From NCBI RefSeq assembly GCF_002854065.1, contig NZ_CP024147.1: 64,000 bases of DNA. The stretch is one strand, 5' to 3'. Position 1 is the stretch's first letter. Each line of letters begins with the position of its first letter. Below the pieces are notes generated by a model, which did not search any database, was not told the origin of the DNA, and worked only from the letters and a program-made list of their open reading frames with translations. Shown here one piece after another: positions 16,998-23,013 of this stretch. Source of the DNA: Escherichia coli. GTDB lineage: Bacteria > Pseudomonadota > Gammaproteobacteria > Enterobacterales > Enterobacteriaceae. Position numbers and translations under genes: made by a program.

Positions 16998-17451
16998 CAG
17001 TTTCACTAGCAGATTGCCAGTTCTAGTAGCCAATTAAGAGAGGAGTGGATTGTTCTTTGGGTATTCGCAAACCCAGCAACGGTAAAATCAGGACTGACCC
17101 AAAAATTCAACGAGAATCCACCCCTTTAAATCTTTGATCCCTTCCCGGAAGCAGTATACGGCATATCTGAGTTAATCGTTTCTATTGGAGCTTCAGGGAA
17201 GCGACTCTTAATAGAAATCTGTTAATACTGTCCAAAACTGATTCCCTTTATCCCGAGCTGAACCGTAACAAAACCATCTCTCTTTGAGATCTCACATACT
17301 CAACGAACATAAGCCATTGCTGCTACATACAATTTTACGAAGCATATCACCTTAGTTGATCATGAAATCCATCCTGAATACAGATTGATTTTTATACTAT
17401 ATTAAGTGAGATATGATCTTCTTTAGAGTTGAGCTAAAAGGAGTCGAGGCG

Positions 17452-18756
17452 ATGGCCAGGATAATCCAATCAGCCGGTATCAATCATGGTGCAACAGCAA
17501 AAATAATTTCCGATTCAATAGATTATAACTCCGGCATACATATTGCAGGATTACCAACGCTATATAATAAAGATGGTCATTTTGTAGAAATTGTAAATTT
17601 GTGGTTTTTGGATTTGATAACCGTTAAGAGGCTAGAGGATATTAGTTCTTCAGCCAGAGCAATTCTTCGTTACTGGTCTTTTCTAGAACGAGAAGAGCTT
17701 ACATGGAGTCATTTTCCTCCAGTGAAACGCCTGAAACCCACATACCTTTTCCGTAGCAACGACTTGTTAAAAGCAGTTAAAGAGGGAAGACTGGCGTACT
17801 CAACTGCAAATACTTATATGGGACATTTAGTTCAGTTTTACATCTGGGCAATTGAAAATCATCATCTTGTCATATCAAGTGAAAAAGAAGCTCCCTTTAC
17901 TATTGAGTTTGTTAAGCGTAACAATAGAGGCCTGCTGGCACATCTTCGCCCAATGATCAGTGTGCAAACGAGCGATTTACGTATCCGCGTTCCTAAAGTT
18001 ACAAACGCCGAGATCCAGTCATTAACTCCTTTAACTCAAGATCATCTTTCCTTACTATCATTCAACTTAAGCCATCAATCTGTTGAATTTATGTTGATGA
18101 CTTTACTGGCCTGTAAAAGTGGTTTGAGACTTCGTGAAGCATGTAGCCTCACAATTGAGGCTTTATCTCAAGCTTTGCCCGCCAACGAATTAAAGCTACG
18201 CTATATGATCAACATTTGGCCCCACAATGGTGTTGATACAAAATTTAGAAAAAAAAGAAATATTGAAGTCCCCTGGCCTCTACTAAACGCATTACAACGC
18301 TACTCGCTGTCAGAAAGAAGGCAAAAAAGACTTTCAAAATTACAGACAAAAATAGCCATTCCCTCAATTTCGGAAAAGATTAAAGAATCCCACAATAAAG
18401 CATCTCGATTCGAACCTCTTTTTATCAGTCAGCAAGGAAATTGTATCCAGCCCGAAGTTCTAAATGCAAGGTGGGTTGCATTTAGAAATGAACTTGCCAA
18501 AAAAGAACCTAGTTTTCGTTATCGTTTCCACGACCTCCGATGTACCTATGCCACATACAGACTTCAAGACCTGCTGGATAGCAATCTCTCAGAAGGGGAT
18601 GCCCTAGACTGTCTTATGGGATGGATGGGACACAATAACGAAAGAACCACATTTAAATATATCCGCTACTTGAAGAAAAACGAGATGCTCAAGTGTGCTT
18701 TTTCGCTATTAGACTCAGTGATGGATAATGCAATAAGGGATAATTTAAATGACTGA
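17452..18756 (+). CDS. Tyrosine recombinase/integrase, first of a tandem trio (ginA-like); alternative start 17413
   Basis: Box I …GLRLREA…, box II HDLRCTYATY, …GHNNERTTFKYIRY; RBS AAAGGAG 8 nt before ATG 17452. Confidence 0.7.
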   Translation: MARIIQSAGINHGATAKIISDSIDYNSGIHIAGLPTLYNKDGHFVEIVNLWFLDLITVKRLEDISSSARAILRYWSFLEREELTWSHFPPVKRLKPTYLFRSNDLLKAVKEGRLAYSTANTYMGHLVQFYIWAIENHHLVISSEKEAPFTIEFVKRNNRGLLAHLRPMISVQTSDLRIRVPKVTNAEIQSLTPLTQDHLSLLSFNLSHQSVEFMLMTLLACKSGLRLREACSLTIEALSQALPANELKLRYMINIWPHNGVDTKFRKKRNIEVPWPLLNALQRYSLSERRQKRLSKLQTKIAIPSISEKIKESHNKASRFEPLFISQQGNCIQPEVLNARWVAFRNELAKKEPSFRYRFHDLRCTYATYRLQDLLDSNLSEGDALDCLMGWMGHNNERTTFKYIRYLKKNEMLKCAFSLLDSVMDNAIRDNLND

Positions 18757-20472
18757 TAAAATCCCTCAATCCAGACTCGGCCATGAAATACTACTGGAGG
18801 TTACAGATGGTGGAAATCGTTCTAAAACACTAGATTTCAATCGCTACAACTATTTATACTTCCCCACTCGAAATAAAATAAATAGAGGTCACAGTACATT
18901 TCAAGATAGATCAGTCAGCGCTGAATCGTTATATGTAGCATTCAGAGATTCAGACTACTCATCAGCCACAAAATATTATCTTTTTGAATACCTCAGGCAA
19001 TATATTGTATTTTGCGACAAGTGTCACCATCCCATTTTCACTAATGAATCCGTGCAGGCCTACTGTGATCTCCTTATTTATAAAAATAAATCAGGAATTA
19101 TTTTGAATAGTACTTATACTGCTATCATTAGTGCCACAAAACGCTTATTCGTTATGCTTGACTTACCTGGGCGGTGGTTTGATGAATTACCAACCTTAGG
19201 AAAGTCACAGGCACAGCCCTATAAGGCCTATAGTGACAATGATTTAAAAAAACTACTCCCTTTACTGAGGATATTTTTCAAGCAAATTTCCAATAAGTTC
19301 CTACAAGACCCCGCTTTGTATCTTTCTCAAGGTAAGAATGAAACTGATATGTTTTTCAGGTGGAATGGTAAAATATATGCAGTATATGGTAGTGTCGGGC
19401 AACTAATGGCTTCTGCTGTATATCTACTGTCTTACTATACATGGGCAAACACAAATACATTACTTTCTCTTGAAAGACCAGACATATGTGAAAGTAATGT
19501 AAATGGAGAATGGTACCAAATGCCAGCATTTAAGCGCCGGGCATTTAGAGTCATCACTATTCAGATCGGTGCCCACGACCAGATCAACATTCCAAAGTAT
19601 TCAATGGAATTTTTCAACCAACTTCTAAAAGTCTCAAAAGCTATTTCAGTTGAAAGTAACTTACTTTTTCAGTCCGGTTCATGTAATCGCATCACCCCAT
19701 TATCAGCGGTCCACTTACAAAATTTCAACAGTTTTCTCAAAAAGAACTTTAGATTAACTGATGATAAAGGACTTAGCTATCACCTGTAATATCGAGATTT
19801 CGTGCTACTGGTAGTCAATTTACGCAATTGCATTACTCTCATACACATAGTGCATCGCTATTAGGAAATTCACCGAAAACAACTCGCAAGCATTATTCAG
19901 AAGGGAATGAATACCAAAATCAGTCAATGCTCCAGGACTCTGTCTCTGTTTTTGCAGACAAGGCGGTAAATGGCGGGAATATAGAGACGTCTAAAAAAAG
20001 AATAAAAAGTGAACTTAATGTTGAGATTTTAACATATGAAAGTATGCTTAAAATGAAATCTCCACCAATGCGACAGGCCCACGGCAGTTACTGTAAAGAT
20101 CCATTCGGGGAGCAGGCTAAAAAGTTCTTGCTACGCGCCCAACGTCACGATTTGCTTTCTACAGAAAAATTTGCTTGCTCAGATCTACTGATGTGTTTTT
20201 CCTGTCCTCATCAAGTTGTGATAGCTGAACCTACTGATATTTGGTGTTTGCTGAGTTTTAAAGAATGCATAGAAGAGAGTATTTACAAGCATGTCAATCA
20301 CACTCATTTCCATAATAACTATGACTCTGTGTTGTCGGCAATTGAAAAAATTTTAATGAGTATTGATAAAAAAATACTTTCAAGTGCAACTCAAAAATTT
20401 CTCGATGAGGGTCCTCACCCTTTATGGAGAGACCAGTCATTTCTATATCCATATAGCAATAAGGATACATGA
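18749..20472 (+). pseudogene. Tyrosine recombinase, second of trio (ginB-like), interrupted by a frameshift/stop at ~19784-19789
   Basis: ORF 18749..19789 (frame 2) and ORF 19828..20472 (frame 1) overlap neighbours by ATGACTGA / ATGA; frame-1 part carries …RFRATGSQF…LLGNSPKTTRKHY, i.e. the catalytic box II/Tyr region. Confidence 0.55.
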
Positions 20473-22271: not shown

Positions 22272-22310
22272 ACTCTGCATAGTTATTGTAAGAACGGATA
22301 TGATTGTGAG

Positions 22311-22565
22311 ATGGAAGGGGTCATTAACCCAGCATTTTGTATAGATTGTAGTACAAATGGTAGTATTATTGATGGCGAACAAGCTGCCTGGTGGAAAAGC
22401 AAACATAATGCACTGATCTTATATTTGAGTGAAAACGCAGAGATATCTACTGCTGTTTATATTCACTGCCTAACACAAATTCATGCAGCTGAGAAGGTAA
22501 TGTCTGATTTTTCAATAGAATACATTCCATTTCAGCCCGAAATAGAGATCAGAACAGATGAGTAA
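22311..22565 (+). CDS. Small hypothetical protein (84 aa) downstream of recombinase trio
   Basis: ATG start; 8-bp overlap (ATGAGTAA) with next ORF. Confidence 0.4.
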   Translation: MEGVINPAFCIDCSTNGSIIDGEQAAWWKSKHNALILYLSENAEISTAVYIHCLTQIHAAEKVMSDFSIEYIPFQPEIEIRTDE

Positions 22566-23013
22566 AAAAGACAACACACTGCTACTGCTTGAGGCAGCTC
22601 TGGACCGTATTTTACGCGGTGAATCACAGAAAATAGCACCATCCCGAAAACTCAGTGTTCGGGCGGTTGAGGTAGAATCAGGACTCGGTAATGGTAGTGC
22701 ATATTACCACACTAAAATTATCGAAAAAATCAAACAAATAAAAAACTCTTCCATAACGACAGGAAGTTTAAATCATCAACATCGAAAATGGAAACAAAAA
22801 GCACTTAAGGCTGAAAAATTAAAAAACAAATTCCGGGATGAAAACATTGCATTAAAATTATTAAATTCACAAATTGCCGCAGATCAGTATAGACAAATGA
22901 GCACTTTAAGAGATGCCTTACAACGTATATTGGAACTCGAAAAAACAATTGAAGAATTGAACATTGAACTGGTTGAGACCAGACGTAAAAACATTACTCT
23001 ATTTAAGCAATAA
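22558..23013 (+). CDS. Hypothetical coiled-coil protein (151 aa), possible fourth recombination-accessory gene (ginD-like?)
   Basis: Lys/Glu-rich heptad-like C-terminal half; translationally coupled to upstream ORF. Confidence 0.4.
   Translation: MSKKDNTLLLLEAALDRILRGESQKIAPSRKLSVRAVEVESGLGNGSAYYHTKIIEKIKQIKNSSITTGSLNHQHRKWKQKALKAEKLKNKFRDENIALKLLNSQIAADQYRQMSTLRDALQRILELEKTIEELNIELVETRRKNITLFKQ

Follow-up and report, generated by a model that had tools for sequence, protein, structure and literature searches.

Arsenic-resistance island at gor in Escherichia coli: a probable strand-biased circularizing integrative element, now decayed

A run of same-strand open reading frames (ORFs) at positions 17413-23013 lies toward the right end of an arsenic-resistance island in an Escherichia coli genome (assembly GCF_002854065.1, contig NZ_CP024147.1), of which we analyzed a stretch of 64,000 nucleotides, hereafter called the window. 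This run, which the ORF list of the window confirms, very probably represents the core recombination operon, intA-tfp-intB-srap, of a strand-biased circularizing integrative element (SE; family described by Idola et al. 2023, PMC10214605) that spans the whole island of ~26.1 kb. The DNA itself shows the order of the genes and their family, both termini, the site of insertion, the lack of a target duplication, and a 6-bp footprint. The tfp/srap pair of the element is already on record, and the element is a decayed addition to a known family; in the literature on ars islands at gor, no paper describing it was found.

Gene module and family assignment

SEs are defined by a synteny block of tfp and srap orthologues (PMC10214605), and since the accessions of this very locus are listed as such orthologues, the defining block is present here. 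WP_050438664.1 (the C-terminal fragment of Tfp) and WP_032288336.1 (Srap) of NZ_CP024147.1 are given as a tfp/srap pair in Additional file 3 of PMC10214605, and the tfp-srap spacing of that entry equals the spacing in the window. Hallmarks of the family are a degenerate second protein, imperfect inverted C/C' ends, a 6-bp donor-derived footprint, and the lack of an empty donor site. The locus agrees with the family in its gene order, with intA, tfp, intB, and srap on one strand and in coupled frames, as well as in the RHRY motif of IntA and IntB, with Tfp having the recombinase fold but not the motif. Furthermore, like other SEs, it is bounded by motif C and motif C' as imperfect inverted repeats, and it is inserted without duplicating its target, so that C adjoins 6 bp of the target and C' adjoins a donor-derived footprint of 6 bp. 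It departs from the family in one descriptive feature, i.e., the location of the core genes at the motif C (left) end with a promoter in attL. All four proteins match those of two canonical modules, located on the Citrobacter freundii plasmid pPSV and on a Klebsiella oxytoca plasmid, position for position (E 1e-25 to 0), and the hosts of their homologues (Vibrio, Shewanella, Aeromonas, Pseudoalteromonas, Photobacterium, and Enterobacterales) fit those in which SEs occur.

The module comprises four genes, all on the + strand: intA (17452..18756), encoding a tyrosine recombinase of 434 aa; a tfp pseudogene (18749..20472), encoding a tyrosine-recombinase-fold protein of 574 aa when intact; intB (20472..22565), encoding a large tyrosine recombinase of 697-698 aa when intact; and srap (22558..23013), encoding an auxiliary protein of 151 aa (WP_032288336.1). 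The ORF of intA is open from 17413, while its start most likely lies at 17452 (MARII...), the start point of all homologues. A scan of 16900-17500 for a sigma-70 consensus upstream of intA found none and was uninformative. The genes overlap by 8 bp (intA/tfp, 18749-18756), 4 bp (tfp/intB, 20469-20472; 1 bp with the second ATG as start), and 8 bp (full-length intB/srap, 22558-22565), as had been stated in a sequence-only reading of this DNA, and all four are translationally coupled. That reading had counted three genes and two small ORFs. However, the smaller of these (84 aa, 22311-22565) lies in the same frame as a 600-aa ORF, from which it is parted solely by a stop codon, and is the severed C-terminal Cys/His-rich domain of IntB, full-length homologues of which (697 aa) are numerous at 61-100% identity. 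The conserved small fourth gene that had been anticipated does exist: Vibrio, Shewanella, Photobacterium, and Enterobacterales contain 98 homologues of Srap, with lengths of 146-156 aa, and the identity to Srap from the two canonical modules (pPSV and K. oxytoca plasmid) is 40%.

Two of the four genes are interrupted in the window. The middle gene, previously taken as a single ORF of ~570 aa, is broken into 18749-19789 and 19828-20472, which are in different frames and encode 346 aa and 214 aa. The underlying lesion is a 1-bp deletion (a missing T) at 19778, relative to E. coli 100416 (L002) and a Salmonella enterica contig (L006). The intB gene is cut in frame by a TGA at 22269-22271, a codon that reads GGA in both 100416 and Salmonella, so that the truncated IntB has 599-600 aa (20469-22271). 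In comparison with the Salmonella copy, intA is seemingly intact, with one W/G substitution. This Salmonella contig is 99.8% identical at the DNA level across window 10462-23732 and carries the four genes uninterrupted (447, 574, 697, and 151 aa). Programmed frameshifting or readthrough was considered as well and rejected, as neither E. coli 100416 nor the Salmonella copy, with its 99.8% identity, has either lesion. Neither are the lesions errors of one assembly, since E. coli CUWW06 (L001), to which the window is 99.97% identical, has both of them, and in RefSeq each resulting fragment is entered as a protein of its own; NZ_CP024147.1, too, has an annotation for the tfp fragment. Among 5,426 complete E. 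coli genomes, 2 carry the module. Strain 100416 lacks intA beside an IS3 element, and its tfp is interrupted by IS1. All E. coli copies seen are decayed, and the Salmonella copies are intact.

A full tyrosine-recombinase catalytic set is kept by IntA and IntB only. In IntA (numbered from the Met at 17452), R226, K264, H360, R363, H394, and Y403 are invariant across 7 homologues, and identities to IntA of the canonical modules on pPSV and the K. oxytoca plasmid amount to 46-50%. In IntB, GMR(337)ESE, K368, H482-x-x-R485, H509, and Y518 are invariant in 21 homologues. The claim of the sequence-only reading that all three large genes encode box I Arg, H-x-x-R, and Tyr is thus borne out for the first and the third protein but not for the second, since Tfp has an invariant Asn (N234) in place of the box I Arg, lacks the His, and retains just R352 and Y383 in 26 homologues down to 36% identity. 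The Tfp family consists of ~575-aa proteins in Vibrio, Shewanella, Aeromonas, and Enterobacterales.

Searches against NCBIfam, Pfam, and PHROGs yielded integrase models for IntA alone (Pfam Phage_integrase, E=5e-7; PHROG integrase, E=5e-17) and nothing useful for Tfp, IntB, and Srap. Because a PDB sequence search with the three large proteins likewise gave no matches, the folds of Tfp and IntB were assessed through AlphaFold2 (AF2) models and Foldseek. The Tfp model matched Cre, XerA, and lambda Int over ~370 columns with a probability of 1.0, and the best PDB matches of the IntB model were Cre and the Tn1549 integrase. According to its model, Tfp is a recombinase fold with a degenerate catalytic site. 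Furthermore, invariant Cys/His clusters are located at the C-termini of IntB (H599, H603, C606, C612, C623, C626, and H645) and Tfp (C477, C483, C486, C500, C507, H515, and H520), and these look like zinc-binding domains; no mention of them was found in the SE literature examined. The nonsense codon at 22269 removes this cluster from IntB in the window.

Borders, target site, and reciprocal footprints

In CUWW06, with which the window is collinear, the arsenic island forms a block of 26,084 bp. It is highly likely that this whole block is one SE, because it ends at gor and at C', contains no internal C- or C'-like sequence, and has no inverted repeat bracketing the module. The left end, motif C (TACCATGAGAGGTTAGTGTA; L001 631-650), is located in the 3' end of gor, ~2.35 kb upstream of window position 1, i.e., the window starts ~2.35 kb inside the element. 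This motif is identical at 18 of 20 positions to the published C of SE-EasCA1043 and at 16 of 20 to the C of SE-PmiBC1123, two SEs that are likewise reported from the gor tail (PMC10214605). The C end rebuilds the gor frame (...EEFVTMRG-stop in place of ...EEFVTMR-stop) and supplies a terminator-like hairpin (AAAACTGGCCGTAACAAGCCAGTTTTTT) after the rebuilt gor stop (L001 631-711). About 85 bp at this end (L001 631-711) are conserved with the copy on a Citrobacter koseri plasmid.

On the right, srap is followed by a non-coding arm (23014..23713, + strand) that ends in motif C' at 23692-23713 (...ACAGTTAAATCGTGTATGGGTA). The outermost bases of C', TGTATGGGTA, are invariant in a right-end alignment of four related elements. 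Directly beside C' lies the 6-bp footprint CTGCGT (23714..23719, + strand), which is extra DNA absent from the empty site, and native DNA resumes with the displaced gor tail (GACCATGCGTTAA; 23720..23732, + strand), beyond which native dinQ is found (23786-23869, - strand). That the module lies at the island's right end, adjoining dinQ, had been recognized correctly before, while the junction, sought at 23.0-23.3 kb, is placed at 23713/23719 by the comparison with an island-free genome, ~0.7 kb past srap. This genome is that of a close relative, GDSC2227PM (L005), in which the empty site reads ...GAAGAGTTCGTGACCATGCGTTAA, the end of gor, with attB (GAAGAGTTCGT/GACCATGCGTTAA; slashes mark the junctions) being uninterrupted. 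In the occupied site, the left junction is ...GAAGAGTTCGT/TACCATGAGAGGTTAGTGTAG... (L001 631 onward) and the right junction is ...CGTGTATGGGTA/CTGCGT/GACCATGCGTTAA (window 23713 / 23714-23719 / 23720). The target duplication that had been considered earlier is therefore absent, and the signature of insertion is instead the addition of the six bases CTGCGT beside C', as the rule for SEs and Tn554 predicts.

These borders also bear on whether the island might be a fusion of two adjoining elements, namely a cargo-less minimal SE of ~6.4 kb, reaching from upstream of intA to C', and an arsenic/defence island devoid of mobility genes. Such a composition would be in line with the distance of 6.3 kb from intA to C', which matches the smallest published SE (SE-AmaTe101, 6,353 bp), with the canonical layout, in which intA lies beside C, and with strain 100416, which lacks the ars genes and retains both ends. 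However, allowing up to 6 mismatches, no further C- or C'-like motif was detected upstream of intA or elsewhere inside the island, motif C being located only at the gor junction, and no inverted repeat bracketing the module alone was found in 16900-23800. Moreover, the loss of the ars genes in 100416 coincides with an IS3 insertion and a deletion, and relatives with different cargo share the location of the operon at C' at several sites and with several footprints, which argues that the long form is the moving unit. A fusion of two elements is therefore considered improbable.

Related modules, with 61-66% IntB identity, were identified on IncHI2 plasmids of C. koseri and Enterobacter kobei, between trhU and trhN. 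In C. koseri, the left junction reads ...GACTGTTGCGT/CACCATGACACGTTAGTGTAG and the right junction ...TGTATGGGTA/GTTTGT/CAGATATATACC; the hexamer at the right junction in E. kobei is ATTTGT. The empty site predicted for IncHI2 plasmids (left flank, TTGCGT, and right flank) is uninterrupted and 100% identical in R478 and several hundred other plasmids, and at >=90% identity it is found in more than 1,100 plasmids in all. Among chromosomal copies, the right end reads ...TGTATGGGTA/TTGCGT/TACGATGCGCTAG in Escherichia wuhouensis, where the last part equals the gor tail, and .../CTGCGT/CACCATGCGTTAA on a metagenome scaffold, while the SE in gor of Enterobacter hormaechei has GTTTGT directly left of C. 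The hexamers are located at L003 1049-1059 and 23225-23230, L004 15692-15697, L007 13678-13683, L017 6157-6162, and window 23714-23719.

The footprints at the two targets are reciprocal. The gor-site footprint of E. wuhouensis (TTGCGT) equals the IncHI2 attL hexamer, the IncHI2-site footprint of C. koseri (GTTTGT) equals the Enterobacter gor attL hexamer, and the copies at the IncHI2 site carry gor-type hexamers (GTTTGT or ATTTGT). Under the published 'fingerprint to footprint' rule, such a pattern is expected if elements hop back and forth between the IncHI2 site and gor, and it suggests that they shuttle from IncHI2 plasmids to the gor tail of the chromosome and back.

Layout, cargo, and present state of the element

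From left to right, the element consists of C, helicase, VspR-like, and helix-turn-helix (HTH) genes, an AAA ATPase gene, the ars genes, intA-tfp-intB-srap, 0.7 kb of DNA, and C'. Cargo of ~19.8 kb parts C from intA, and the operon is found at the C' end, while published SEs are described as having it next to motif C, with attL containing the promoter (PMC10214605). It is worth noting that this placement is a descriptive feature in the SE paper and not a search criterion. The modules on pPSV and the K. oxytoca plasmid are canonical, with intA at the edge and the helicase, VspR-like, and HTH genes as well as defence cargo after srap. The operon-at-C' layout recurs in Salmonella, E. wuhouensis, the metagenome scaffold, and, at a different site, another E. 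coli lineage. The segment from C to intA has the reverse orientation in C. koseri and a Pseudescherichia-like contig, and the E. hormaechei copy (SE-EasCA1043-like) takes a middle position, as its C and intA are separated by 2.5 kb containing two genes. Since the copies with the operon at C' show at least 4 different footprints at two targets, this layout seems compatible with movement. Whether these copies represent an enterobacterial SE lineage in which the operon moved to the C' end, 8-20 kb from attL/C, and which repeatedly shuttled between IncHI2 plasmids and gor, is in our view evenly balanced.

Within the window, cargo of the same element occupies 1..17451 (IS2, VspR-like, HTH, Lamassu-like AAA ATPase, two ars clusters, and an ArsP permease), with a 460-bp spacer between the cargo and intA. 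The DEAD/DEAH helicase, the VspR-like protein (Pfam VspR_N/VspR_C), and the C-protein/CapH-like HTH protein are encoded by a conserved set of three genes that accompanies these SEs (L001 776-4473, corresponding to window 1-1473; L003 6293-8654; L012 7781-10143; L013 20669-23031; L021 1635-3996) and takes three different positions or orientations among them. The HTH gene is always followed by variable defence-type cargo, i.e., CBASS, SIR2, a Lamassu-like AAA ATPase, or a ubiquitin-like system. In the window, this is an 869-aa AAA ATPase (1865-4474) that matches models of Lamassu LmuB (E=3e-26), DndD, and PbeC and, judging by these matches, may represent a defence function that the element carries in addition to the ars clusters. 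The two ars sets (window 6000-16954) are divergent, the first one comprising arsR-D-A-B-C and the second one arsA/arsD, arsH, an extracytoplasmic function (ECF) sigma factor, an ArsR-family regulator, and the ArsP permease. The 'arsenic resistance island' of Salmonella Montevideo/Kentucky (PMC6159554) may be the same element. Beyond the element, the 3' end of native arsC is cut by IS1 (24788-25485) and dctR is truncated (window 24404-25620); native arsR and arsB are absent, likewise in the island-free relative, and 80 bp at window 25541-25620 are absent from CUWW06, which shows that the window derives from a strain closely related to CUWW06 but distinct from it.

If the element behaves like SE-6283 and SE-6945, its four proteins would recombine attL and attR on one strand only. 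The product would be a nicked double-stranded circle bearing 6 bp from the left of C, and the chromosomal copy would stay in place after circle formation. The circle would then insert at a specific target, with 6 bp of the target ending up beside C and 6 bp of the donor beside C'. In SE-6283, a knock-out of intA, intB, or srap abolishes circle formation, and tfp could not be deleted. Because of the tfp frameshift and the intB nonsense codon, the copy in the window is most likely immobile unless complemented in trans by a related element. The earlier view of the module as the integration/excision machinery of the whole island thus stands insofar as it is the expected mover of the island, but this machinery is mutationally dead in this strain. 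Most likely, it was as an SE that the island came into E. coli, where it has since become immobile; in this strain, with two of four core genes broken, it is probably fixed in place.

Several points weigh against the assignment of the island to the SE family and against the state proposed for it. The location of the operon at the C' end departs from the published layout. The complementarity between C and C' is weak (7 of 12 terminal bases by hand count), as it is in published members, too. A donor site of CTGCGT was not found among the IncHI2 sites, as R478-type plasmids have TTGCGT, from which CTGCGT is one base off, and the other IncHI2 lineage has TTGTGT. The truncated IntB still possesses its catalytic domain, the Cys/His domain being lost. 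Finally, it is from family membership alone that circularization, strand bias, and the lack of an empty site would be expected for this element.

The borders and the target (the gor stop region) are thereby fixed for a 26-kb island with arsenic resistance that occurs in Salmonella and, in rare cases, in E. coli. SEs have been studied experimentally only in a few marine isolates, and the natural enterobacterial footprints reported here fit the donor-hexamer rule. They also point to IncHI2 plasmids as vehicles, which is relevant to the spread of metal-resistance and defence cargo. If the proposed shuttling holds true, it would explain how a non-mobilizable element transfers arsenic-resistance and defence genes among Salmonella, Enterobacter, Citrobacter, and E. 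coli, and if the operon-at-C' layout is that of a moving element, the attL-promoter-intA arrangement, thought to be essential, would be dispensable. Layout and reciprocal footprints are the only points likely to draw specialists.

Comparison with known systems

The nearest known elements are SE-EasCA1043 and SE-PmiBC1123, which both reside in the 3' end of gor (PMC10214605), and with the former the element shares both the gor target and 18 of 20 bases of motif C. In common with published SEs, it has overlapping frames in the order intA-tfp-intB-srap, orthologous Tfp and Srap, a complete/degenerate/complete catalytic pattern, a gammaproteobacterial host, a 6-bp footprint beside C' without target duplication, and a low G+C content, here 37-43% across the module versus ~50% in the host. 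Unlike published SEs, it has its operon at the C' end with ~19.8 kb of cargo before intA, carries arsenic-resistance cargo, and is present as an inactivated copy (tfp frameshift, intB nonsense). Its termini are not among the 37 defined in PMC10214605.

Genomic Islands with three Integrases (GInts; Bardaji et al. 2017, PMC5385486) were the identity favored by the sequence-only reading, with the genes being ginA, ginB, ginC, and ginD. The resemblance lies in the site-specific insertion and in a module of four coupled genes, of which three encode proteins with a recombinase fold and the fourth a small protein that ends in a coiled coil (coiled-coil/helix-loop-helix in GInts). All four genes are needed in GInts, and some members leave no empty site (PMC5385486). 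Moreover, GInts are commoner than SEs in Escherichia (7.5% versus 0.3% of replicons), and in a BLAST with the empty site the two junctions seem to overlap by 10 bp. However, when compared to GinA-D of E. coli Sakai (ECs_3512-3509, coordinates from Additional file 10 of PMC10214605) by BLASTP and profile hidden Markov models, none of the four proteins showed significant similarity (E>0.1, 12-protein database). Furthermore, GinA and GinB have RHRHY and it is the third protein, GinC, that lacks the first Arg, whereas here the second protein is degenerate. In GInts, the operon is at the 5' end, cargo begins from the ginD stop codon, and the borders are 10-11 nt imperfect direct repeats. Here, the operon is not at the 5' end, no cargo starts after the fourth gene, which is followed by a 0.7-kb non-coding arm, and the borders are C, C', and a 6-bp footprint without direct repeats, the apparent 10-bp repeat being accounted for by the target-like motif C together with the footprint. 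Together with the listing of the locus in the tfp/srap table, this makes a GInt very improbable and leaves the SE as the favored identity.

Least probable of all is a recombinase-in-trio (RIT) element, also named by the sequence-only reading, or a Tn554-type transposon. Three adjacent recombinase-like genes are what a RIT would have, but RIT proteins measure 315-410 aa, all have the catalytic Tyr, and are accompanied by 34-bp terminal inverted repeats and no fourth gene, while the proteins here measure 434, 574, and 697 aa, the second is degenerate, the fourth gene is conserved, and no such repeat occurs in 16900-23800. Tn554 (tnpA-tnpB-tnpC) combines a small and a large recombinase with a small third protein and, by description, shares the target specificity and the donor-derived 6-bp footprint without duplication. 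It has no counterpart of Tfp, however, and is known only from the Firmicute hosts Staphylococcus and Enterococcus. Tn554 would thus be the closest mechanistic analogue outside SEs, through a likeness of mode rather than membership.

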